DNA of 10,856 bases, from IMG/VR virus record IMGVR_UViG_2695420523_000025, positions 1-10,856 of that record. One strand, 5' to 3'. The position numbers were made by a program, and so were the translations under genes. This DNA is from a virus (taxonomy: Duplodnaviria; Heunggongvirae; Uroviricota; Caudoviricetes). Each line of letters opens with the position of its first letter. The first letter of the stretch is position 1. Below the pieces are notes generated by a model, which saw nothing but the letters and a program-made list of their open reading frames with translations, ran no database searches and was not told where the DNA came from. Shown here one piece after another: positions 1-10,856 of the stretch.

Positions 1-861
1 CCTGTCCTGATTGATGTGAACGGCGTTCCGCTTCGTGAGAGTCTCAGCTACAACGGGGGCGGCGCAGGATTTGGCGGGCAAATGGCGGAGTGGTTGCCAC
101 CGGCGCAGAGTGTCGATGCGGCCCTGCTGCCCGCGTTGCGTCTGGGGAATGCCCGGGCAGATGATCTGGTGCGCAATAACGGAATAGCGGCTAATGCGGT
201 GGCCCTGCATAAGGATCACATTGTCGGGCATATGTTTCTGATCAGCTACCGTCTGAACTGGCGCTGGCTGGGGATGCGGGAGACCGCAGCAAAAAGCTTT
301 GTCGATGAGGTGGAGGCGGCCTGGTCGGAATACGCAGAAGGGATGTCTGGCGAGATCGACGTGGAAGGAAAACGCACATTTACGGAGTTTATCCGTGAAG
401 GTGTTGGCGTTCATGCGTTTAACGGCGAAATCTTTGTGCAGCCGGTCTGGGATACGGAAACCACGCAGTTATTCCGTACGCGTTTTAAAGCCGTGAGTCC
501 GAAACGGGTGGACACGCCAGGACACGGTATGGGGAACCGTTTTCTGCGGGCCGGGGTGGAGGTCGATCGATATGGCCGTGCCGTTGCGTACCATATCTGT
601 GAGGATGATTTTCCGTTCTCCGGGAGTGGACGATGGGAACGGATCCCGCGTGAACTTCCCACCGGGCGTCCGGCCATGCTGCATATTTTCGAGCCGGTGG
701 AGGACGGGCAGACCCGTGGGGCCAATCAGTTTTACAGCGTCATGGAACGGCTGAAGATGCTCGATTCCCTGCAGGCAACACAGCTTCAGTCGGCCATAGT
801 GAAGGCGATTTATGTCTATCATCTCACCGTAGTTGCCCGCATCGTTCGCCAACTCCACTGA
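1..861 (+). CDS. Phage portal protein, lambda gpB family; 5' end lies off-window and the 3' part appears replaced near nt 813, so likely a disrupted gene
   Basis: The frame is open from nt 1 (GTG at 16 is only the first start the ORF finder met). The translation carries blocks I recognise from lambda-family portals: YNGGGAGFGGQ, SVDAALLP, GNARADDLVRNNG, HKDHIVG, FEPVEDGQTRGANQFYSVME, TQLQSAIVKA. Recognisable similarity ends about 15 codons before the stop. Lambda-family portals are about 500-530 aa, whereas this ORF would be about 300 aa. Confidence 0.8.
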   Translation, partial: PVLIDVNGVPLRESLSYNGGGAGFGGQMAEWLPPAQSVDAALLPALRLGNARADDLVRNNGIAANAVALHKDHIVGHMFLISYRLNWRWLGMRETAAKSFVDEVEAAWSEYAEGMSGEIDVEGKRTFTEFIREGVGVHAFNGEIFVQPVWDTETTQLFRTRFKAVSPKRVDTPGHGMGNRFLRAGVEVDRYGRAVAYHICEDDFPFSGSGRWERIPRELPTGRPAMLHIFEPVEDGQTRGANQFYSVMERLKMLDSLQATQLQSAIVKAIYVYHLTVVARIVRQLH

Positions 862-937
862 AACCCTTGCTGCGTCTGGAATGTCGTTTTCCATGCTTTT
901 GATGACCGTTCATCACCCTTCCAGTTTTTCGCGGTTT

Positions 938-991
938 TGTGTATTGCAATGTGTATTGCAAATTGGCGATCGGGATGGGTGTGTATTGCAA
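938..991 (+). repeat. Three direct copies of TGTGTATTGCAA (938-949, 950-961, 980-991) just upstream of int; candidate integrase arm-type or autoregulatory sites within the att arm
   Basis: Three exact 12-bp copies read directly, two in tandem and a third 18 bp later, ending 19 bp before the int start codon. Confidence 0.55.
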
Positions 992-1009
992 ATCTCTTGA
1001 GGGCTTTTA

Positions 1010-2251
1010 ATGGCTATTGAAAACAAACTCAGTGACAAACTGTTAAAGAGTCTTGTCGGAAAACGGCAGGACAAACAAAAAACAATAGCGGATGGGCGCG
1101 GGTTGTCTGTGCGTGTAAGCATGGTTGGGGGGATCAGCTTTGTTTTTTACTATCGTCTTGGTGGCAGGGAATCCCCTCCGGTATGGCTTACACTTGGTCG
1201 CTATCCTGACATGTCTCTTGCAACGGCTAGGCGCATGCGTGATCAGTGCCGTGAATGGCTGGCTGAAAATCTGGACCCCCGCAGGCAAATAAAACTTGCT
1301 GCCGAAAAAACTATGCAACCAGTGACCGTAAGGGATGCGCTGTTTTACTGGTACGACAATCACGCCACAACAGCCAGAAAAGAGCATGAATATTTAATAA
1401 AACGATTTGAAAAGCATATCTTCCCCTATATCGGTGATATGGCTATAGAACAGTGCAAATTACACACATGGCTTACCGTCTTTGACAGGATCAAAAAAAA
1501 TGCGCCTGTTATGTCTGGTGCAATTTTTCTTGATATCAAACAGGCGTTGCGTTTTTGTCGCGTCAGGCAATACATCGCGTGCGATCCCTTTGGAGATATT
1601 AACGTAAGTTATGTCGGGCGCTCATCCGGTATAAGGGATCGCGTTCTTAATATCAATGAAACCGCTGATGTATGGTCTTATGCTTACGGTAATAATTTGC
1701 TAACTCTGTCATCAATATATAACCGAAGAATAATGGTTATCTGCCTGGTGTTTGGTTGCCGACAGCAGGAGGCGAGGCTATCCACCTGGGACGAATGGGA
1801 TTTAAAAAACTGGGTATGGACAGTCCCAAAAGAGCACAGCAAAAACAAGGAGGCTATAGTAAGGCCTGTTCCTGACGGAATAAAACAATGGATCGTTAAT
1901 CTTTACGCAGAAACAAAAAATCGCGGTTATGTTGTCGGTTGTGCTTTGCAAAGGGCGACAATAACAGGGGCTGCAAACAGAATATGCAGGCGTCTTGGTC
2001 ATGATACTAATGGCTTGTGGTGCATACATGATTTCAGGCGCACATTTTCCACTACGCTTAATGATATGGGGGCGGATCCTTATATTGTCGAACTTCTTTT
2101 AGGTCATAAAGTGAAAGGGGTTGCTGGTGTTTACAATAAAAGCAGGCATATAAAGAAAAAACTTGAGGTGCTTAATATGTGGGTTAATTACCTTAATACG
2201 ATAGCAGGATTTAACAACAACGTTATCGAGCTTAATAAAGAGGTGGTGTGA
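1010..2251 (+). CDS. int: Tyrosine site-specific integrase, P4-like family
   Basis: 413-aa ORF with RBS GAGGG about 7 nt upstream. N-terminal arm-binding-type region (GRGLSVRVSMVGGISFVFYYRLGG...LTLGRYPDMSLATAR). C-terminal catalytic region with HDFRRTF, LLGH and the tyrosine in GVYNKS. AT-richer than the portal fragment. Confidence 0.93.
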   Translation: MAIENKLSDKLLKSLVGKRQDKQKTIADGRGLSVRVSMVGGISFVFYYRLGGRESPPVWLTLGRYPDMSLATARRMRDQCREWLAENLDPRRQIKLAAEKTMQPVTVRDALFYWYDNHATTARKEHEYLIKRFEKHIFPYIGDMAIEQCKLHTWLTVFDRIKKNAPVMSGAIFLDIKQALRFCRVRQYIACDPFGDINVSYVGRSSGIRDRVLNINETADVWSYAYGNNLLTLSSIYNRRIMVICLVFGCRQQEARLSTWDEWDLKNWVWTVPKEHSKNKEAIVRPVPDGIKQWIVNLYAETKNRGYVVGCALQRATITGAANRICRRLGHDTNGLWCIHDFRRTFSTTLNDMGADPYIVELLLGHKVKGVAGVYNKSRHIKKKLEVLNMWVNYLNTIAGFNNNVIELNKEVV

Positions 2252-2252
2252 T

Positions 2253-2510
2253 ATGGCAATTTATTCTCTTGTTGATGAAAACGATTTGCGCACAATGAAG
2301 GACATTGATCGGTTCATTCGTGAAAAAGAGTGCATAGCACTTACCACGCTGGCAAACTCAACACGCTGGAAAATGGAGCAGGCAGGTAAATTCCCGCGAC
2401 GTATCAAGATCGGTGAACGTGCTGCAGGGTATCGACTTTCAGAGGTTCAGGCATGGATCCGTGGTGAGTGGCATCCTGGATGGAAACCTGGAAAAACAAA
2501 ACAGCAATAA
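2253..2510 (+). CDS. alpA: AlpA-family (Phage_AlpA) helix-turn-helix regulator / excisionase-like protein
   Basis: 85-aa ORF starting 1 nt after the int stop (TGAtATG) with RBS AAGAGGTGG. The core LTTLANSTRWKMEQAGKFPRRIKIGERAAGYRLSEVQAWI matches the AlpA/Xis pattern. Confidence 0.85.
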   Translation: MAIYSLVDENDLRTMKDIDRFIREKECIALTTLANSTRWKMEQAGKFPRRIKIGERAAGYRLSEVQAWIRGEWHPGWKPGKTKQQ

Positions 2511-2523
2511 CCAGTAAATAATG

Positions 2524-2546
2524 CCCCTCATCACGAGGGGTTTTTT
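2524..2546 (+). terminator. Intrinsic terminator closing the int-alpA unit
   Basis: Stem CCCCTC (2524-2529), loop ATCAC, stem GAGGGG (2535-2540), then TTTTTT (2541-2546). Confidence 0.65.
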
Positions 2547-2566
2547 GTCTATAAGGTAAAAACGCG

Positions 2567-3145
2567 ATGAATAAAAATATTGCCGTGACGGGCAAGGGGT
2601 ACGCTCGTCCAGTGAAAAAATTCTGCGATATTCGTGATCTCGTCGTTCTGCGCTTTGATAGTGTGAACGTTCGTGTGGTGTATCTGAACGGCGATCCGTG
2701 GTTTGTTGCAAAAGATGTTTGTGCTGCGCTGGAACTAACCAATTCGCGTACGGCGTTGCAGATGCTTGATGATGATGAAAAGGGAGTAAATTTAACTTAC
2801 ACCCCAGGAGGAAATCAGAATATGAGAATTATCTCTGAGTCAGGTTTCTACAAACTAATAGCCCGCAGCCGCAAAGCAACGACGCCTGGCACATTTGCTC
2901 ATCGTTTCAGTAACTGGGTATTCAGAAATGTGATACCAGGTATCAGAAAAACGGGGACTTATGGTATCCCGTGGGGTGCATTACAGGATTTTTCCCGCCG
3001 TAAAGAGCAATATCAAATAAGTGCCAGCGAGAAGGGGAGGGAGCTACAGGCATGTAAGCGCAAAAAGCGTGAGCTGGAGGAAGAAGAAAAAACGCTGATA
3101 CGTGAATATCAGCCTGAGTTTTACTTTGGTAACCGCATTCAGTGA
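2567..3145 (+). CDS. Bro-N domain protein (antirepressor-like) with a charged coiled-coil C-terminus
   Basis: 192-aa ORF. The core VVYLNGDPWFVAKDVCAALELTNSRTALQMLDDDEKG is typical of the Bro-N fold. C-terminal KRKKRELEEEEKTLIREYQ is predicted helical. It starts only 20 nt after the terminator T-tract, so its promoter is unclear. Confidence 0.7.
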   Translation: MNKNIAVTGKGYARPVKKFCDIRDLVVLRFDSVNVRVVYLNGDPWFVAKDVCAALELTNSRTALQMLDDDEKGVNLTYTPGGNQNMRIISESGFYKLIARSRKATTPGTFAHRFSNWVFRNVIPGIRKTGTYGIPWGALQDFSRRKEQYQISASEKGRELQACKRKKRELEEEEKTLIREYQPEFYFGNRIQ

Positions 3146-3154
3146 CAAAACAAA

Positions 3155-3175
3155 GGCGACCGCAAAAGGGTCGCC
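3155..3175. terminator. GC hairpin between the convergent Bro-N and minus-strand genes; possible terminator, better placed for minus-strand transcripts
   Basis: GGCGACC (3155-3161), loop of 7 nt, GGTCGCC (3169-3175). No T-run follows on the + strand; the minus strand reads TTTGTTTTG after the stem. Confidence 0.35.
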
Positions 3176-3241
3176 AGTGGGAACAAGGGAAAACAAAAGC
3201 ATCACCAACAATGCCACATTTGCGGCTGGTGGGCAATGTGA

Positions 3242-3421
3242 TCAGTCAGATTTGGTTCGTTCCAAGGTTTGCAACGAGAGCTTTTTCCTGTGCTCTTTAA
3301 GGAATTTCTCAAGAGCAAACGAACAAGGTGCGAATCTTTCTGATTCATGTTCATGCGCTATATTTTTGCGTCGTCTCTTACGAGTTGGTGATGGTGTTTT
3401 GGTTGATTCTGTGTCGCTCAT
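3242..3421 (-). CDS. Small basic hypothetical protein (59 aa), absent from the ORF track
   Basis: Manually translated from the minus strand: MSDTESTKTPSPTRKRRRKNIAHEHESERFAPCSFALEKFLKEHRKKLSLQTLERTKSD, with stop TGA at 3244-3242. AGGA lies 7 nt upstream of the ATG. It sits 57 nt downstream of the RHH-like gene on the same strand. Confidence 0.3.
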   Translation of the reverse strand: MSDTESTKTPSPTRKRRRKNIAHEHESERFAPCSFALEKFLKEHRKKLSLQTLERTKSD

Positions 3422-3478
3422 GGTGCTGTCCTGTAAAGCAATGCGCCTGCGTTCCTCAAACTATGGCGCTGATAGTGG

Positions 3479-3784
3479 CTATTCCTGCTCTTTGACCTTG
3501 CGTCGCTGGAGTTCTTCACGCGCGACGGTGACGAGTTGCCCGATCTCCTCGGCGGCTTTGACTCCGATTTTTTCCACCTGCGCTAGGGCATCGAGCGAAG
3601 AAACCAGGAGGTTTTCTCCGCTTCCTTCTGCCTGGCGGCGGGCGATTTCACCGCGCATGGCGGTTACTATGAATCCGGCGTTGCTTTCACCGTCCAGTTT
3701 TACGGATTCCATGCCTTCAATAACATCATGCGGGATCCGAGCTGTCAGTGATTGTGATTTTGCGTTTTTTGAACCTGTAGCCAT
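3479..3784 (-). CDS. Ribbon-helix-helix-like DNA-binding protein; candidate repressor of the divergent rightward operon
   Basis: The N-terminus KSQSLTARIPHDVIEGMESVKLDGESNAGFIVTAMRGEIARR has the RHH beta-strand plus two helices pattern, followed by a helical tail. I prefer the ATG at 3784 (RBS GAGAGGA 6 nt upstream) over the ORF-track TTG at 3799. It is divergent from a region with palindromic operator-like sites. Confidence 0.6.
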   Translation of the reverse strand: MATGSKNAKSQSLTARIPHDVIEGMESVKLDGESNAGFIVTAMRGEIARRQAEGSGENLLVSSLDALAQVEKIGVKAAEEIGQLVTVAREELQRRKVKEQE

Positions 3785-3805
3785 CTGTAATCCTCTCAAT
3801 GAAAG

Positions 3806-3900
3806 TGTAAGACAATATACACATAAAAAGTCTTACATAAAAGCATTGACATGTAAGCCACCTATAAATAAAGTTACTTACACCTTGTTAATACAAGGTG
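3806..3900. promoter_or_regulatory. Divergent promoter/operator region with TGTAAG/CTTACA half-sites, a sigma70-like rightward promoter and a 7-bp-stem palindrome
   Basis: Half-sites TGTAAG at 3806-3811 and 3852-3857, inverted partners CTTACA at 3832-3837 and 3877-3882. TTGACA at 3846-3851 with TAAAGT 17 bp downstream at 3869-3874 (rightward). On the minus strand TATATT is a candidate -10 for the RHH gene. Palindrome CACCTTG-N6-CAAGGTG at 3881-3900. Confidence 0.45.
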
Positions 3901-3980
3901 CAGAAACGACGAAACCCCGCACTGTAGGAGCAGTAACGGGGCTTCTAACCACCAACGATAGCAAGATTATCGAGGCAGCT

Positions 3981-4184
3981 ATGAGAAATTATACCATACA
4001 CCCGCAAGGGCGGGACTCGTACAACCTGAATAAATACATCTGGCGTTTTATCGCCCTGAGCACCGCACAACCGCGCGTGATTCACATCGTGGCCACCAGC
4101 GAACAGGAAGCACGCCAGCAATCCCCGGCTGGCTGCGTGATGGTATTCGCCGCCCGTATTCGTCAGGGGGTGTGCCATGCCTGA
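3981..4184 (+). CDS. Small hypothetical protein (67 aa), first gene of the rightward operon
   Basis: ATG at 3981 with GAGG 5 nt upstream, in frame with the stop at 4182-4184, which overlaps the start of the next gene by 8 nt. It is the only plausible part of the long low-complexity ORF 3102..4184. Confidence 0.45.
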   Translation: MRNYTIHPQGRDSYNLNKYIWRFIALSTAQPRVIHIVATSEQEARQQSPAGCVMVFAARIRQGVCHA

Positions 4185-4497
4185 TATGTCAAATTACCAG
4201 TACCTGATTAATCCGCATTTTAACTGTGAGCATGATATTGCTAAAAAGGTTTATTCCGCTGCTGATGGGGCTACTGACAATATATCAATGGCTGTTGCGT
4301 CAATTGGTAGCCTGATGTGGCATGCGTCAGAAAATGAGGACTATGACGAAAAGGCCATGCGCATTGATATGGGTAATATCGGTTTGTTACTGGCAATGCT
4401 TGGGCAGTTTGATATTTCGTTACGGTGCACCATTGAAAATGCCACAGATGCATTAAATGCCATAAAGAAAGCGAATACTGATTCAAATCGGGGATAA
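4177..4497 (+). CDS. Hypothetical protein (106 aa)
   Basis: ATG at 4177 with RBS AGGGGG 6 nt upstream. Overlaps the preceding stop. No recognisable motif. Confidence 0.6.
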   Translation: MPDMSNYQYLINPHFNCEHDIAKKVYSAADGATDNISMAVASIGSLMWHASENEDYDEKAMRIDMGNIGLLLAMLGQFDISLRCTIENATDALNAIKKANTDSNRG

Positions 4498-4503
4498 ATA
4501 ATC

Positions 4504-4803
4504 ATGAGAACATATTTATCTGGCTTGACTGCCAGCGGTTATGCACACCCCAAAATTATCCCCGGCGCTATTTATCTGGATAAGAACGGTAACAGAGTAA
4601 CGGTAAAAGAGCTGATGTTTGACCGTGTGTATTTTATTCGTGATGGCTATTCATTTCATAGTTCGCTGAACGTGGAGATCTTTATTAGCAGATTCAGGCG
4701 GGAAATCCCGCTTTCCAGAAAAAACCATGTGTCACGTGTGAATGTGGATAAAAAACTACAGGAACTGAAAAACATGATTGCCGCGTGGAGAGAGCAGAAA
4801 TGA
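4504..4803 (+). CDS. Hypothetical protein (99 aa)
   Basis: ATG at 4504, 7 nt after the previous stop. Its stop TGA (4801-4803) overlaps the primase ATG (4800-4802). No recognisable motif. Confidence 0.6.
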   Translation: MRTYLSGLTASGYAHPKIIPGAIYLDKNGNRVTVKELMFDRVYFIRDGYSFHSSLNVEIFISRFRREIPLSRKNHVSRVNVDKKLQELKNMIAAWREQK

Positions 4804-6617
4804 AAAAAGCGCCAAATTTAAAACACCAGCCGCGTGACAAAATGACGGAAGTCATCATTTTTGCGGGTAGTGATGCGTGGGCACATGCGAAGCAGTGGCA
4901 GGAACAGGACGGGCGACTGGCTGGCGATAACGTGCCTCCTGTCTGGCTTGGAGAGCAACAACTTGCCGAACTGGACAACCTGCAAATCGTACCGGACGGA
5001 CGCTATCGCGTGCGTCTCTATCAGGCGGGGTTATTGCGTCCGGGGCTTGTTAATACCATCGGGCAGAAACTGGCAGCGGCAGGTGTCAGGGATGCTGATT
5101 ATTACTCTGAAGGAATGCACAGCCAGAAACGGGAGAACTGGCGCGAATATCTGGAACGTGAACGGGCAGAGCTGGCGGAAAAGAAAAAGGTAGTTGAACT
5201 GCCTGTAAAGAAAAAAGAGCGGGTAAAAGACGATAACGCTTCATCACTGGCGCTTAACCAGATGGGAGCAAGTCAACGCGGCGAAGTTCTCCTGGCACAT
5301 TATGGCGGTGAACTGGCGATTCATGCTGACTCTGACACTGTTCACCATTACAACGGCGTTGTATGGGAGCCAGTACAGGATAAAGAATTACAGCGAGCTA
5401 TGGCACAGATTTTCATTGATGCGGAGATCAGCTATTCGCAGAACGCCATTAAATCGGCGGTCGATACCATGAAGTTAAGTTTGCCTGTTATGGGGAATAC
5501 AGCCCGTAACCTGATTGGATTCAGTAACGGGGTATTTGATACCAGAACAGGTAATTTTCGGGAGCATAACAAAAACGACTGGTTGTTAATTGCCAGTGAA
5601 TTACCTTTCAGCCCACCAGCAGAGGGGGAAACGCTGGCAACACATGCGCCGAATTTCTGGAAGTGGTTACGCCGTTCGGTGGCTGAGAATGACCGCAAGG
5701 CGGATCGCGTACTGGCTGCATTATTCATGGTGCTGGCGAACCGGTACGACTGGCAGTTATTCATTGAGGTAACAGGTCCAGGGGGAAGTGGTAAAAGCGT
5801 GATGGCGGAGATTTGCACCATGCTGGCGGGTAAGGCCAACACAGTATCGGCAAGCATGAAGGCGCTGGAAGATGCAAGGGAACGCGCGTTAGTGGTTGGC
5901 TTTTCGCTGATTATCATGCCGGATATGACCCGCTACGCTGGTGATGGGGCAGGAATTAAGGCCATTACAGGCGGTGACAAGGTGGCAATTGACCCGAAAC
6001 ACAAAGCCCCCTACTCAACGCGTATTCCGGCAGTAGTGCTGGCGGTTAACAATAACGCCATGTCATTCAGTGACCGCAGCGGGGGGATCTCACGTCGTCG
6101 GGTGATATTCAATTTTTCGGAAGTTGTACCGGAGAACGAACGCGATCCAATGCTGGCGGAAAAAATAGAAGGTGAGCTGGCGGTAGTGATTCGCCATCTG
6201 CTTACACGGTTTGCTGACCAGGACGAAGCCAGACGCCTGTTATATGAGCAGCAGAAATCTGAAGAAGCACTGGCGATAAAGCGAGAGGGGGATTCGCTGG
6301 TGGACTTCTGCGGCTATCTCATGGCGTCGGTAATGTGTGATGGCCTGTTAGTGGGTAATGCTGAAATTGTGCCATTCAGCCCACGCAGGTATCTCTATCA
6401 TGCCTATCTGGCTTATATGAGGGCACATGGGTTTGGTAAACCTGTAACACTGACGCGCTTCGGTAAAGATATGCCGGGGGCAATGGCGGAATATGGCAGG
6501 GAGTATATGAAACGGAAAACGAAGCACGGTTTGCGTTCAAACGTGACACTGACGGAGGAATCAGAAGACTGGATGCCATCATGTGTATCGGTCACTAATG
6601 ACGATAGCAAAAATTAA
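4800..6617 (+). CDS. Replication primase/helicase, P4 alpha-like (N-terminal primase-type region plus SF3/D5-type NTPase)
   Basis: Long ORF with Walker A GPGGSGKS and a downstream hydrophobic stretch ending in D (SLIIMPDM, Walker B-like). Start taken at ATG 4800 (RBS GGAGAGAG), but GTG 4785 and ATG 4842 are alternatives. An iteron array follows immediately. Confidence 0.9.
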   Translation: MKKAPNLKHQPRDKMTEVIIFAGSDAWAHAKQWQEQDGRLAGDNVPPVWLGEQQLAELDNLQIVPDGRYRVRLYQAGLLRPGLVNTIGQKLAAAGVRDADYYSEGMHSQKRENWREYLERERAELAEKKKVVELPVKKKERVKDDNASSLALNQMGASQRGEVLLAHYGGELAIHADSDTVHHYNGVVWEPVQDKELQRAMAQIFIDAEISYSQNAIKSAVDTMKLSLPVMGNTARNLIGFSNGVFDTRTGNFREHNKNDWLLIASELPFSPPAEGETLATHAPNFWKWLRRSVAENDRKADRVLAALFMVLANRYDWQLFIEVTGPGGSGKSVMAEICTMLAGKANTVSASMKALEDARERALVVGFSLIIMPDMTRYAGDGAGIKAITGGDKVAIDPKHKAPYSTRIPAVVLAVNNNAMSFSDRSGGISRRRVIFNFSEVVPENERDPMLAEKIEGELAVVIRHLLTRFADQDEARRLLYEQQKSEEALAIKREGDSLVDFCGYLMASVMCDGLLVGNAEIVPFSPRRYLYHAYLAYMRAHGFGKPVTLTRFGKDMPGAMAEYGREYMKRKTKHGLRSNVTLTEESEDWMPSCVSVTNDDSKN

Positions 6618-6630
6618 ACTTATGGAATAA

Positions 6631-6853
6631 CTGTTCACCACTGTTCACCCTGTCATAAATATCTTTTGTATCAGTATGTTATAGGGTGAACAGTTATTTA
6701 TGAACTGTTCACCAAACTATTCACTGTTCACCTTTTTGATTGTTTATTGAGCTTCAAGGGTGAACAGTGGTGAACAGTTGGTGAATAGTTTTTGTGAAAC
6801 TGTTCACCCCTTAACATTATGAATAAAAAGTTAAAATATCAAAAGGTGAACAG
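6631..6853. repeat. Iteron array, putative origin of replication of the element
   Basis: Exact CTGTTCACC at 6631, 6641, 6705, 6724 and 6800. Exact inverse GGTGAACAG at 6685, 6759, 6769 and 6845. Degenerate GGTGAATAG at 6780. Tandem copies have 10-11 bp periodicity. Two inverted pairs have 11-bp AT-rich spacers (6685-6713 and 6780-6808). The surroundings are AT-rich and directly downstream of the primase gene. Confidence 0.75.
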
Positions 6854-6904
6854 GTGAAGGGTTAAAACGCAAAAATTTTAATTTACTGCTGTGAGATAAA
6901 GCCT

Positions 6905-7150
6905 ATGACAGCGAAGCACACAAAAAAATCACAATCGCACGCCCTTGATTTGACGGAACACTGGTTAAGGGTGTCGATAAAAATCATCGACCGCAACGCC
7001 GGGGAAGGATATGCGAAAGCACATCCCGAACTGATTAGCTCATTCATGACAACGGCAGCTGCAAACTTTGCCACGCTGACAGAACGGGAGATTGCCGAAG
7101 CGGAACAGGTGACAACCATCAACGTTAAAACCGGAGAGCAGACAGCATGA
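6905..7150 (+). CDS. Hypothetical protein (81 aa), translationally coupled to the SSB-like gene
   Basis: ATG at 6905. Its stop TGA (7148-7150) overlaps the downstream ATG (7147-7149). No recognisable motif. Confidence 0.55.
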   Translation: MTAKHTKKSQSHALDLTEHWLRVSIKIIDRNAGEGYAKAHPELISSFMTTAAANFATLTEREIAEAEQVTTINVKTGEQTA

Positions 7151-7569
7151 CAGCACAGATAGCGGCTTACGGGCGGCTGGTGGCTGACCCGCAGTTAAAG
7201 ACCACCAGCAAGGGTACACAAATGACGATGGCGAGTATGGCGGTCCCACTTCCGTGCAGCCAGGCAGATGACGGAACGGCGACGATGTGGTTATCCGTCC
7301 TGGCGTTTGGCAGACAGGCCGAAGCACTGGCAAAGCACCGCAAGGGTGAACTCCTGAGCGTGGCGGGTAACATGCAGGTGAGCCAGTGGACCGGACAGAA
7401 CGGGGAGACGCGGCAGGGCTGGCAGGTTATCGCAGACAGCGTAATCAGTGCGAGAACGGCGCGACCGGGCGGCAAAAAAGGCCAACAGGGGCAGGCTACT
7501 GATGCACTGAGCAGAGCAAAACAACAGGCGGGAAATGATGATCCGTACGGGGATAACATACCGTTTTAA
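7147..7569 (+). CDS. ssb: Single-stranded DNA-binding protein (SSB family) with acidic C-terminal tip ending IPF
   Basis: 140-aa OB-fold-like N-terminus (IAAYGRLVADPQLK...WLSVLAFGRQAEALAKHRKGELLSVAGNMQVSQWTGQNGETRQGWQVIADSV) that parallels E. coli SSB block by block. Gly/Gln-rich linker. C-terminus DDPYGDNIPF compared with SSB DFDDDIPF. Confidence 0.8.
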   Translation: MTAQIAAYGRLVADPQLKTTSKGTQMTMASMAVPLPCSQADDGTATMWLSVLAFGRQAEALAKHRKGELLSVAGNMQVSQWTGQNGETRQGWQVIADSVISARTARPGGKKGQQGQATDALSRAKQQAGNDDPYGDNIPF

Positions 7570-7585
7570 GCAACGAGTAACAGAA

Positions 7586-7607
7586 GCCGGAGCAATCCGG
7601 CTTTTTT
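7586..7607 (+). terminator. Intrinsic terminator after the SSB-like gene
   Basis: GCCGGA (7586-7591), loop GCAA, TCCGGC (7596-7601), then TTTTTT (7602-7607). Confidence 0.7.
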
Positions 7608-7609
7608 AT

Positions 7610-7681
7610 GGGTCCTCCCGGTGTAGTGACCTGCCACGGGGCGGGAGCGTCGCGGAAAAAGGCTGGTTTTTGCATTTTCAT
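7610..7681 (+). repeat. Copy 1 of a 72-bp GC-rich intergenic module; candidate shared regulatory element
   Basis: GGGTCCTCCCGGTG...CTGCCACGGGGCGGGAGCG.CGCGGAAAAAGGCT.GTTTTTGCATTTTCAT. 66 of 72 positions match the copy at 10146-10217 by manual alignment. It begins 3 nt after the terminator T-run. Confidence 0.6.
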
Positions 7682-7868
7682 GGCGGCGGCAGCATGTGTA
7701 GTAATTTATTGATAATTAAAAGTTATTTCTGTTTTCACCTGTACAATATTTTTTTCTCCCTGTCATTAGACCAGTTTGCAATTAATTGAAATATATAAAT
7801 AAATCTGTTTTTCACCTGCCAGGTGGAGTTGCCTGTGTCAAAACGTGTTCAGATGGCGGGATATTTAT

Positions 7869-7892
7869 GCCGGATTTTATCCGGCTTTTTTG
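7869..7892 (+). terminator. Intrinsic terminator inside the intergenic region upstream of the capsid operon
   Basis: GCCGGA (7869-7874), loop TTTTA, TCCGGC (7880-7885), then TTTTTT (7886-7891). The stem is the same as in the 7586 terminator. Confidence 0.6.
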
Positions 7893-7993
7893 TGTCTGAA
7901 TCTCATTAATCTATTTTTATGATAGAAATATGTTTATCTACCACTTTTATCGATCAATAATGTGCACAGTTTAGTCAGTAAGAGGAAGTTACT

Positions 7994-8203
7994 GTGAGTT
8001 GTATTAATGACCTGAACACGGGCGATATCAGGGGTGGTTCCGTTCATCTGGATGCGCAGACCGTTATGCGCCTTAAGCAGTACAGGATCGACCATATAAA
8101 TCATCATCCTGACAAACCATTACCAGGTGTGGCGCAGATTGTCAGGCATGCCGTAAACGCCTGGCTTAATCAGAGTGGTTTTGCATCGGAGAGTGAGCAA
8201 TGA
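7994..8203 (+). CDS. Small hypothetical protein (69 aa), translationally coupled to the protease-capsid gene
   Basis: GTG start with strong RBS AAGAGGAAG 7 nt upstream. Its stop TGA (8201-8203) overlaps the ATG at 8200-8202. A weak RHH-like pattern (MRLKQYRIDH...VAQIVRHAVNAWL) is not conclusive. Confidence 0.5.
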   Translation: MSCINDLNTGDIRGGSVHLDAQTVMRLKQYRIDHINHHPDKPLPGVAQIVRHAVNAWLNQSGFASESEQ

Positions 8204-10113
8204 ATCACTGGTACACCATTAAGGCGGCGGATGTTCGCGGAGCGGCGGATATATCTATCTATGAGGAGATTGGCGGCTTCGGTGTTACTGCAAAGCAGTT
8301 CGCGGAAGACCTGAAAGCCCTTGGCGATGTTTCACATATCAATCTGAGGATCCATTCACCAGGTGGTGATGTGTTTGAAGGCATCGCCATCTATAACCTG
8401 CTACGGAATCATCCGGCAGACATTACGGTTTATATCGATGGTGTTGCGGCTTCAATGGCTTCGGTTGTCGCAATGGCTGGCGATCGTGTTGTTATGCCGG
8501 AGAACGCCATGATGATGATCCATAAACCGTGGGGTATCTCTGGCGGAAATGCTGGCGATATGCGTGATTATGCTGATTTGCTGGATAAGGTGGAAACCGT
8601 GTTAATCCCTGCTTATGCCAGAAAAACGGGCAAATCAGCACAGGAAATTACCGCCATGCTGGAGGATGAAACCTGGATGGATGGGAAAGAATGCCTTAAG
8701 CACGGTTTTGCTGATGAATTGTTGCCATCCGTCAGAGCAATGGCGCGAATTGAATCGAAACGCACAGGAGATTTTTTACATATGCCGGAAACCATTAAAG
8801 GAATGATTACACCGCCACAGGGAGCGGCAAATATTGCTGGTAATGAACAGAAGCGCATCAATGGAATAAGTGAAGTGTTTAGCTTGTTCGGCAGTCGTTA
8901 CGACGGGATCAAAATGGCGTGTCTGGAAGATGCATCATGTACACCGGAAATGGCCCGTGAAAAGCTGTTGAACGAGCTGGGGCGCGAGTCCACGCCATCC
9001 AATAAAAATACCCCGCCTCATATCTATGCCGGAAACGGAAACATAACAGGTGATGCAATTCGTCAGGGGCTTTATTCCCGTCTTGGGTATGAACGCCCTG
9101 AACGAGGCAACCCTTACGCGATGATGAGCCTTTTTGAAATGGCCCAGGCATCACTGGTTGATCGTGGTATCACTGTGAGCGGTTTTATTAATCGCTCGCA
9201 GGTTGTTAATGCGGCTTTTACACACAGCAGCAGCGATTTTTCTCATATTCTGGCTGGTGGCGCTGAAAAATCAGTACTGAAAGGCTGGCAGGACAGCGGC
9301 GAAACGTTCCAGAAATGGACGCGTACCGGTTCGCTTTCAAACTTTCATGAAGCAAAGCGCGTTGGTCTGAATGGTTTTTCAAAGCTGGATAAAGTACCGG
9401 AAGGCGCGGAATATAAATACATCACCACTAGCGATAAAGGTGTACCTATTGCGCTGGCCACGTACGGGAATATTTTTTCCGTTACCCGTCAGGCCATTAT
9501 CAACGATGACCTGACCCAGTTAACTACAATCCCCATGGCGATGGGACGCGCAGCTGCCAGAACAGTTGGCAATCTGGTTTATCTCCTGTTAACCAGCAAC
9601 GGCAAGTTTACGGATGGTAAAGCGTTATTCCATGCCGATCATAAAAATCTTATTGCGAAGGATATGGACATGGAGGGGCTTAACGAAGCCCGTAAGCTGA
9701 TGCGCCTCCAGGAAGACGCTAACGGCGATTCGCTGAATATTACCCCCGCATTTGTCCTGGTCCCCGCCGCGCTGGAGTCTGCCGCACATCGCGCCATTCT
9801 GTCATCGTCATCACTCTTTCCGGTTGATGGCGTGGGCACTATCAATCAGAACCCCGGCATCATTAACGTGGTGAAAGATATGGCGGAGGTAATCGTTGAG
9901 CCACGTCTTGATAAAGCCAATAACAAGGAGTGGTATGTGGCAGCGGCGAAGGGTATGGACACGATAGAGGTCGCTTATCTTGATGGTATTGATACGCCAT
10001 ATCTTGAGGAGCAGGAGGGCTTTACTGTTGATGGCGTCGCCTGGAAGGTGCGCATAGATGCAGGTGTCGCGGCCCTCGACTATCGCGGATTACTGAAATC
10101 GAGTGGAGCATGA
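8200..10113 (+). CDS. Fusion protein: N-terminal ClpP-like (S14-type) prohead serine protease joined to a C-terminal putative major capsid domain
   Basis: N-terminal 200 aa carry ClpP signatures HSPGGDVFEGIAIYNLL, catalytic-serine context GVAASMASVVAMAGD and histidine context MMMIHKPWG. The remaining roughly 430 aa have the size and position expected of a scaffold plus capsid region. The capsid assignment is from context and general resemblance, not a verified alignment. Confidence 0.8.
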   Translation: MNHWYTIKAADVRGAADISIYEEIGGFGVTAKQFAEDLKALGDVSHINLRIHSPGGDVFEGIAIYNLLRNHPADITVYIDGVAASMASVVAMAGDRVVMPENAMMMIHKPWGISGGNAGDMRDYADLLDKVETVLIPAYARKTGKSAQEITAMLEDETWMDGKECLKHGFADELLPSVRAMARIESKRTGDFLHMPETIKGMITPPQGAANIAGNEQKRINGISEVFSLFGSRYDGIKMACLEDASCTPEMAREKLLNELGRESTPSNKNTPPHIYAGNGNITGDAIRQGLYSRLGYERPERGNPYAMMSLFEMAQASLVDRGITVSGFINRSQVVNAAFTHSSSDFSHILAGGAEKSVLKGWQDSGETFQKWTRTGSLSNFHEAKRVGLNGFSKLDKVPEGAEYKYITTSDKGVPIALATYGNIFSVTRQAIINDDLTQLTTIPMAMGRAAARTVGNLVYLLLTSNGKFTDGKALFHADHKNLIAKDMDMEGLNEARKLMRLQEDANGDSLNITPAFVLVPAALESAAHRAILSSSSLFPVDGVGTINQNPGIINVVKDMAEVIVEPRLDKANNKEWYVAAAKGMDTIEVAYLDGIDTPYLEEQEGFTVDGVAWKVRIDAGVAALDYRGLLKSSGA

Positions 10114-10120
10114 CAACAAG

Positions 10121-10143
10121 GGCGGCGATAGCCGCCTTTTTTT
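10121..10143 (+). terminator. Intrinsic terminator after the protease-capsid gene
   Basis: GGCGGC (10121-10126), loop GATA, GCCGCC (10131-10136), then TTTTTTT (10137-10143). Confidence 0.7.
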
Positions 10144-10145
10144 AC

Positions 10146-10217
10146 GGGTCCTCCCGGTGGGGTGGTCTGCCACGGGGCGGGAGCGGCGCGGAAAAAGGCT
10201 AGTTTTTGCATTTTCAT
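10146..10217 (+). repeat. Copy 2 of the 72-bp GC-rich intergenic module
   Basis: Matches 7610-7681 at 66 of 72 positions. It has the same placement, 2 nt after a terminator T-run and upstream of the next operon. Confidence 0.6.
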
Positions 10218-10370
10218 TCGTCATCATCATCTTTCTATTGTATTGAATTTTAAGTATTTTTATTTTTGGCATGTTAATTTTGCTTGTTTTATGCTCAACA
10301 TATAGCGCATTTTTTGACCTCTTCTGAAAGTTGTTCGCAAGATGCATGTTTAAAACATTCTGGAGCGGGT

Positions 10371-10856
10371 ATGGATCGAGAACTGAAAAATCTGATGCTG
10401 AACATTAATCAACTGGCGGCGATAGCGGGAATATGTCGTCAGACTGCGGCGGCAAGGCTGAAAAACATCCAGCCAGCCGGAGGGCATGACAAGCTAAAAC
10501 TCTATCGGGTGACTGACATTCTGACCTGTTTTCTTGATCTTCCCGTTCCGGCATCACTGGAAGAAATGGAGCCACATGACCGTAAGGCCTGGTATCAGTC
10601 CGAACGTGAGCGCCTCAGGTTCGAACAGGAAACGGCGCAACTCATACCCGCCGATGATGTGCGAAAAGAGATGGCTATATGGGGGGAAATCGTAAGCGAG
10701 GAACTGGCAAAACTCCCCAATATTCTGGCACGTGATGCCGGGCTTAAACCGATGGCAGTAAACAGAGTGCAGTCAATTATTGACGATTTGCGTAATCAGA
10801 TTATCAGCCGGATGGTAAAAAATGACGTAGTGAATGAGGTCGCAAAACAGGCATGA
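10371..10856 (+). CDS. Nu1-like small terminase subunit or packaging-specificity DNA-binding protein
   Basis: Start taken at ATG 10371 (RBS GGAG 5 nt upstream) rather than the ORF-track 10284. N-terminal HTH-like LNINQLAAIAGICRQTAAARLKN, then a LY...ERERLRFEQE region and a C-terminal helical region, with an overall layout like lambda Nu1. The stop is at the last 3 nt of the window. Confidence 0.55.
   Translation: MDRELKNLMLNINQLAAIAGICRQTAAARLKNIQPAGGHDKLKLYRVTDILTCFLDLPVPASLEEMEPHDRKAWYQSERERLRFEQETAQLIPADDVRKEMAIWGEIVSEELAKLPNILARDAGLKPMAVNRVQSIIDDLRNQIISRMVKNDVVNEVAKQA

Follow-up and report, generated by a model that had tools for sequence, protein, structure and literature searches.

A Bro-N gene behind a conserved terminator in a portal-embedded phage satellite, with a possible regulatory role in trans

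We describe a computational analysis of bro, a gene for a Bro-N protein at positions 2567–3145 (+ strand) of a 10,856-nucleotide stretch of Caudoviricetes DNA (IMG/VR record IMGVR_UViG_2695420523_000025, positions 1 to 10,856), which as a whole we call the window. The stretch holds a phage satellite, a phage-inducible chromosomal island (PICI), embedded in the portal gene of its helper prophage, and bro follows the genes for a tyrosine integrase (int) and an AlpA-family regulator (alpA). An initial annotation, made from the sequence alone, had taken the gene to be satellite-borne, which the interrupted portal gene and the core of the left attachment site bear out, and had proposed that its product might induce the resident helper as an antirepressor.

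The bro locus and its product

The gene, its transcription signals and its immediate neighbours are arranged as follows.

1010–2251, + strand: tyrosine integrase gene (Pfam Arm-DNA-bind_3, Phage_int_M and Phage_integrase)
2253–2510, + strand: alpA, of the excisionase/activator family, first regulatory gene of the unit to which bro belongs (Pfam Phage_AlpA, E = 5.4e-14)
2523–2547, + strand: intrinsic terminator between alpA and bro, stem 2523–2541, T-run to 2547 (terminator scan, folding)
2554–2558, + strand: Shine–Dalgarno-like AAGGT, 8 nt before the ATG (sequence reading)
2567–3145, + strand: bro, Bro-N protein of 192 amino acids (aa), ATG start (open reading frame call, Pfam, PHROGs)
2666–2938, + strand: Bro-N domain, aa 34–124 (Pfam)
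2723–2842, + strand: swappable, putative recognition segment, aa 53–92 (helix and β-hairpin), allele A in the window (allele comparison)
2990–3109, + strand: long charged C-terminal helix, aa 142–181 (AlphaFold 2 model and charge count)
3155–3175, − strand: terminator of the leftward ylcI transcript, right boundary of the bro cassette (terminator scan, folding)
3479–3799, − strand: ylcI/ynfO-like gene, convergent with bro and divergent from the icd-like gene and replication operon (NCBIfam YlcI_YnfO_N, E = 5.6e-20)

The open reading frame (ORF) behind int and alpA does encode a Bro-N protein, as the initial annotation had it: the Pfam Bro-N profile (PF02498) matches residues 34–124 over its full length (profile positions 1–96; E = 4.9e-20; 72.4 bits against a cut-off of 25.6). 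Bro-N is also the sole domain, the Pfam search giving no KilAC, no P22_AR-type C-terminal domain and no PF25738. An AlphaFold 2 model built on an 85-sequence alignment has a disordered N-terminus, a confident Bro-N fold at residues 26–129 (predicted local distance difference test score, pLDDT, about 90) and, at moderate confidence (pLDDT 57–82), a tail formed by a single helix of residues 142–181. Lysine, arginine, aspartate and glutamate account for 21 of the 40 residues of this helix, which is therefore as highly charged as had been claimed; the accompanying claim of a coiled coil is not borne out, as even the best heptad register is hydrophobic at just 62% of its a and d positions.

The Bro-N part is a compact α+β domain of the DNA-binding type, and its model resembles the DNA-binding protein DdrC (7.0), the APSES domain of Mbp1 (6.0) and the winged-helix domains of Dachshund/Ski. 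These likenesses, together with a net charge of +11 for the protein, are in keeping with a DNA-binding role for the Bro-N module, which has long been predicted. No match to Bro was found among solved structures, in sequence searches that started from Bro alone and from a profile, in NCBIfam, or among the PADLOC-DB models of anti-phage defence (0 families at E ≤ 0.01), and a fold search of BFVD returned other Bro-N proteins only, under labels such as ‘Ant-like’ and ‘Repressor domain protein’, and gave no functional lead.

PHROG 2593, labelled ‘anti-repressor’, matches Bro at E = 3.8e-85 and covers profile positions 1–192 of 255 only, and in BLASTP the last 15 residues of Bro align with the 15 that open the KilAC domain in a Bro-N–KilAC protein. 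Judged by these alignments, Bro appears to correspond to the Bro-N domain and linker helix only, ending at the KilAC junction. Its Bro-N core is 55–60% identical to that of phage ‘Ant’ proteins, including the one from the PICI helper Kapi1, and ‘antirepressor protein’ is the name used by NCBI.

Transcription into bro

The start of bro had been placed 20 nt after a terminator, and this holds: the ATG lies 20 nt past the T-run and 25 nt past the stem of a hairpin of 7 bp, 5 of them G–C, that is followed by six T (folding z-score −2.7). Terminator-like sites number 11 in the region 800–4300, against 3.6 ± 1.8 in shuffled sequences. A terminator ends 19–20 nt before the bro ATG in all six Escherichia coli loci compared (L001, L004, L005 and L006 among them), and these terminators come in two unrelated stem sequences; unrelated stems at one position argue that the terminator structure has been kept and not merely inherited. 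Sibling islands have GAGGT where the window has AAGGT.

No promoter-like site was found between the terminator and the bro ATG. Of the two routes of expression suggested initially, read-through from alpA stands, whereas a promoter within alpA would not serve, as its transcript must still cross the terminator. The other possible source is the late operon of the helper, downstream of which bro lies in the embedded state. Polymerase modified by a lambda-type Q protein ignores intrinsic terminators, an antiterminator of the Q family is among the annotated genes of one helper, and we infer that the late transcript crosses the alpA–bro terminator by way of this modification. Entry of the helper late transcript into the island has been proposed in the survey of Gram-negative PICIs and helper-embedded PICIs (HE-PICIs) by Tommasini, Mageeney & Williams (2023, PMC10111431), where one HE-PICI was induced experimentally and the composite excised and replicated first, the satellite excising later. 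The gene alpA is itself activated by the helper, according to a preprint on capsid-forming PICIs (cf-PICIs; 10.1101/2022.09.08.507074). Because any transcript of bro must first pass the terminator, whether it comes from alpA or the helper late operon, Bro would be made after helper activation.

All folds predicted for positions 2505–2570 and for the counterparts in L001, L004, L005 and L006, which are minimum-free-energy folds only, enclose the terminator hairpin within a weak outer helix, where the Shine–Dalgarno bases (AAGG or GAGG) pair with upstream sequence; both hairpin versions show this. On this modelling, the outer helix may damp the translation of read-through transcripts.

Distribution and selection

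The gene bro is a genuine and selected, yet dispensable, accessory gene. At a threshold of at least 80%, its cassette is present in about 174 of 5426 complete E. coli genomes, some of which carry copies 100% identical to the bro of the window, and it occupies 60 of the 61 portal-type int–alpA arms, the sole exception being a truncated copy. Pairwise ratios of nonsynonymous to synonymous divergence (dN/dS) are about 0.1, whether taken over the whole gene or over its tail only, and the length of the protein is constant at 192–194 aa. With dN/dS at this level bro is not a decaying remnant, and the ratio and the constant length together rule out a pseudogene.

Dispensability is seen in a chromosomal sibling island at cspD/clpS, which is 98–99% identical to the window from 3199 on and lacks bro, the next element after its alpA being the hairpin of the leftward ylcI terminator, the same as at 3155–3175. 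Read from this comparison, the bro cassette appears as a terminator, a ribosome-binding site and an ORF inserted between alpA and the ylcI terminator. Another chromosomal PICI has only a decayed bro fragment in the same slot, which rules out that bro is specific to HE-PICIs.

Relatives outside E. coli were sought in a scan of one genome per species, which gave 13 tail-bearing proteins from the Enterobacterales genera Providencia, Erwinia, Leclercia, Yersinia, Chania, Serratia, Raoultella, Klebsiella and Proteus, with 51–62% identity in the best-matching segment. In all 13, bro takes up the slot of the alpA operon. It overlaps the preceding gene or follows it by no more than 19 nt in nine, and an AlpA/HTH_17 gene lies no more than about 450 nt upstream in at least 11; Pfam confirmed AlpA/HTH_17 in all six upstream ORFs tested. 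Two more relatives, reached through protein look-up, have the same coupling of alpA and bro. Such tight coupling across relatives marks Bro as a member of the alpA operon.

An ORF of 131–150 aa and of no assigned family sometimes stands between the two genes in these relatives. In L017–L019, L024, L025 and L029 (at about 3490–3980) it is a conserved ORF of 131–140 aa without a Pfam match, characterized by the motif KKHRAR..GxNGFTENEIL..CRLSSGRNY; it abuts alpA, with a shared boundary base read in four of these six loci, and lies 12–15 nt from bro.

Two alleles of an internal segment

Among 120 close homologues, nearly all variation falls within residues 50–90, and the linker and tail are nearly invariant. 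The variation resolves into two deep alleles of residues 53–92, the second helix and the β-hairpin of the domain, within otherwise near-identical genes. Synonymous divergence (dS) between the alleles is saturated, for which reason positive selection on the segment was rejected; the saturation points instead to an old segment exchange and not to rapid adaptive change. The decayed Bro of another PICI contains 108 nt of allele A at 92% identity. The segment exchange agrees with the ‘domain-swapping’ behaviour reported for the Bro network (PMC10111431).

The allele is linked to none of the neighbouring features that we compared, being independent of int/alpA type, of ylcI type and of the presence of the arm motif near the left end of the island. 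L004 and L006 share their int/alpA type and helper late region and yet carry alleles B and A, a pair which suggested that the allele covaries with the ylcI switch; that candidate was rejected by L001 (allele B) and L006 (allele A), whose YlcI proteins are near-identical. Bro as the binder of the arm motif TGTATTGC was likewise rejected, as the motif is absent from Bro-bearing islands of the terL type and from the 13 loci in other genera. The repressors of the helpers of alleles A and B are unrelated (LexA-like XRE versus Rac-like), a comparison of two that is uninformative, also for the antirepressor question. In E. coli EC28, the same Bro occurs in a prophage that is truncated and lacks an immunity region.

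Possible functions of Bro

In its slot, island type and insertion site (core AAGGCGAT), bro belongs with the ‘Bro zone’ genes of PMC10111431, from which it has no structural difference: its tail is identical to segment b12.8 of the ‘Bro network’ catalogue of that paper and its Bro-N part matches b9.6-8 (the first part b9.6/7; SuppFile2). The paper assigns these genes no function, and other PICI surveys have noted putative BRO/AntA/Rha ‘antirepressors’ beside alpA without functional data (PMC11773190, PMC13612085). Published work already covers the class of element, the site where it inserts, its arm motif, the ‘Bro zone’ and this segment of the protein; to these we add the conserved terminator gate, the finding that a KilAC-less form is under purifying selection, the two alleles of the putative recognition segment and the lack of linkage to ylcI, int or the arm motif.

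Our tentative reading is that Bro is a trans-acting, DNA-binding regulator with its targets in phage DNA, that of the helper or of a competitor, and not in the island. The helper phage would switch on alpA, with bro as the distal gene of the int–alpA unit, behind its conserved terminator and without a promoter of its own; in the embedded state, terminator-resistant late transcription running from the portal gene into the island would add to Bro synthesis; and either route would place Bro after helper activation. The protein would then bind phage DNA sequence-specifically, probably self-associating through its tail, and a swap of the helix and β-hairpin of residues 53–92 would change its specificity. 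That the Bro-less sibling retains a 98–99% identical switch and replication module argues that bro stands outside the circuitry of the island. Our preferred working model is a satellite DNA-binding protein of the wider ‘Bro network’ which, according to PMC10111431, represses a helper gene by binding its promoter; its domain family differs from that of Bro, and we claim no homology.

A more specific form of trans action, to which we would attach little belief, makes the terminator a gate that only the antiterminated late transcription of the helper passes. Bro would then be made in the late phase and act on other lambdoid prophages or on incoming phage, inducing or silencing them, with residues 53–92 setting the specificity. 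If true, this would amount to satellite-driven crosstalk between prophages.

That Bro is an antirepressor, which would bind the repressor of a lambdoid helper and induce the prophage as P4 epsilon does P2, we regard as doubtful; the plausible form of this explanation is action upon entry of the satellite into a new lysogen, and Bro as a trigger that induces the resident helper is unlikely. The satellite antirepressor is an old concept, and derepression of helpers by satellites is known from P4 epsilon (PF25738, ‘Derepression’), encoded in the vis–eta–epsilon–alpha operon downstream of the alpA-like vis, which turns on the helper and so has the function that the initial annotation proposed for Bro. 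The labels of PHROG 2593 and NCBI point the same way, as do the fixation of Bro in portal-type HE-PICIs (60 of 61 genomes) and its character as an optional gene with a swappable segment, which would be expected of a specificity factor. There is, however, no sequence or domain relationship between Bro and P4 epsilon: PF25738, which recovers P4 epsilon itself at E = 9e-51, matches neither Bro nor the other window ORFs scanned. The premise that Bro-N proteins are commonly antirepressors proves to be mostly an annotation label, and where relatives have been dissected the activity lies in C-terminal domains that Bro is without. It maps to KilAC in Listeria AriS and its Bro-N-bearing homologue Lin2418 (PMC9043618) and in phi11 Gp07 (PMC5944126), and the conserved part of the phi24B and P22 Ant proteins is the P22-type C-terminal domain (PMC3064807). 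In Gp07 and Lin2418 a homologous Bro-N domain is followed by a helical linker, as in Bro, and then by the KilAC (ANT) domain that holds the mapped activity, whereas Bro stops at that junction and has neither the C-terminal KilAC/ANT nor the P22_AR_C domain of an Ant-type protein. As a caveat to this comparison, Pfam recognizes no domain at all in the C-terminal parts of most Bro-N relatives. Moreover, expression of bro would follow helper activation, and in EC28 the gene sits in a truncated prophage with no immunity region. At present, bro is one of many ‘Bro-network’ satellite genes, for which the antirepressor label is not evidence, and neither its sequence nor its setting shows that it turns on the helper prophage. 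If a PICI Bro did derepress lambdoid prophages, PICIs would cease to be passive elements awaiting a helper and would be able to bring about induction themselves, which would affect how Shiga toxin (Stx) and other genes carried on prophages spread in E. coli.

An anti-immunity operon under an antisense or processed RNA, such as P1 c4–icd–ant or N15 cA–icd–ant, does not describe bro either. A search of the window against Rfam gave no match to a C4/isrK-type immunity RNA at E ≤ 1 (just three chance matches to eukaryotic families), and bro stands here in the alpA unit with the icd-like gene apart from it (3981–4184). This icd-like ORF overlaps by 8 nt a 106-aa ORF (orf106, 4177–4497, phrog_15327), and the two reproduce the gene order of the P1 and N15 operons, by virtue of which orf106 is at least the equal of Bro as a positional candidate for an antirepressor. 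The orf106 of the window has no homology to P4 ORF106.

Bro might instead serve the programme of the island. At the divergent ylcI/icd switch it could oppose or assist the YlcI-like regulator, or it could aid Int/AlpA recombination at the arm motifs. Its position between alpA and the convergent ylcI would suit such a role, and the HE-PICI paper left ‘some unknown DNA binding protein’ possible at the doubled TGTATTGC motif (PMC10111431). We find this improbable all the same, given the near-identical switch and replication module of the Bro-less sibling, the occurrence of near-identical YlcI with different Bro alleles and of one allele with different YlcI types, and the presence of Bro in islands without the arm motif.

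Hardly more credible is that Bro acts as a KilAC-less competitor of phage Bro-N–KilAC regulators, occupying their sites or forming mixed oligomers with them and so blocking or hijacking a helper regulator. Bro does end 15 residues into the KilAC position, its match to the PHROG profile breaks off at 192 of 255 positions, its core is 55–60% identical to phage ‘Ant’ proteins including that of Kapi1, and its tail is strongly constrained. The alignment of the tail is weak and gapped, however, a near-identical phage partner was not found, and the explanation is wholly inferential.

There is likewise little to recommend a function directed at the host or at conflict (growth inhibition like that of P4 Kil or phi11 Gp07, defence or counter-defence), or the absence of any current function. 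The slot of bro is that of P4 eta/kil (Pfam Phage_ASH), directly after an alpA homologue, and Eta/Kil is counted in the ‘Bro network’ (PMC10111431); the Bro-N domain of phi11 alone inhibited growth transiently (PMC5944126), and bro decays in some islands. Eta/Kil nevertheless belongs to another family than Bro (BLASTP E = 0.29), PADLOC gives no match, and a dead gene is at odds with a dN/dS of about 0.1 and a length held at 192–194 aa.

For work on these explanations a natural control is at hand: there are sibling islands that carry bro and others that do not (NZ_CP042899.1 for example), about 98–99% identical downstream of the cassette (2537–3198), and there are the two natural alleles.

The surrounding island

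The left end of the island is defined by the following features.

16–861, + strand: 5′ fragment of a portal gene of the lambda family, the interrupted target in the host prophage (TIGR01539, Phage_portal_2)
802–809, no strand: identity block AAGGCGAT of attL, the left end of the island (sequence reading against PMC10111431 SuppFile1/3)
938–990, + strand: doubled TGTGTATTGCA arm motif at 938–960 and a third copy at 980–990 (motif scan)

The portal fragment matches TIGR01539 (portal_lambda) at E = 2e-107 over profile positions 1–244 of 457, its match to Pfam Phage_portal_2 stops at profile position 242 of 354, and its counterpart in E. coli EC28 is annotated ‘phage portal protein, missing C-terminus’. 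The AAGGCGAT at 802–809 equals the attL/attR identity block given for the site B:Phage_portal_2:241 of HE-PICIs (B_Phage_portal_2_241; PMC10111431). In the attP of HE-PICIs a doubled motif lies 132 ± 2 bp from the att centre or core (PMC10111431), and in the window the doubled tgTGTATTGCa motif at 938–960 lies 133 bp from 805. The TGTGTATTGCA arm motif has three matches, against 0.28 expected, and is absent from the terL-type Bro-bearing islands L001, L004 and L006. Like other HE-PICIs, the island lies in a prophage late gene at a catalogued site and is co-oriented with it (+ strand, the ylcI-like gene being on the − strand), and its zones follow the order int, alpA, then Bro, then primase and single-stranded DNA-binding protein (SSB), then late genes. 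The genes of replication and late type are the icd-like ORF, DUF4222, a D5-type primase, SSB, a ClpP–major-capsid fusion and a DUF1441 gene resembling the small terminase. Five other E. coli genomes have the same layout, inside terL or portal genes.

Taken in one piece, at least 80% of the window was found in 0 of the 5426 complete E. coli genomes. The left arm (1–3200) is as in EC28, and the right arm (3199 to the end, with the ClpP–capsid fusion and the DUF1441 terS-like gene) is as in the Bro-less chromosomal island at cspD/clpS; compared in this way, the island reads as a recombinant of modules.

Several minor observations concern the island at large. The helper can make no portal protein until the island excises. 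The third TGTGTATTGCA copy of the window (980–990) lies 20 nt beyond the doubled motif. The ylcI/ynfO-like gene probably encodes a ribbon–helix–helix regulator; in sibling islands its product has a form of 101 aa or of 59 aa, and the gene is followed on its own strand by a basic ORF of 59 aa (3242–3421, −). A direct repeat of 80 nt occurs at 7602–7681 and 10138–10217 with 91% identity, each copy beginning in the T-run of a strong terminator (after ssb and after the ClpP–capsid gene, respectively), ahead of the next gene of the late zone. Both copies fold into a second hairpin (z-scores −1.8 and −3.4), Rfam gives no matching family, and the repeat may be a repeated late-promoter or leader element. 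Directly after the primase gene, dense iterons of CTGTTCACC/GGTGAACAG in both orientations occupy 6616–6853, a region that is probably the replication origin of the island.
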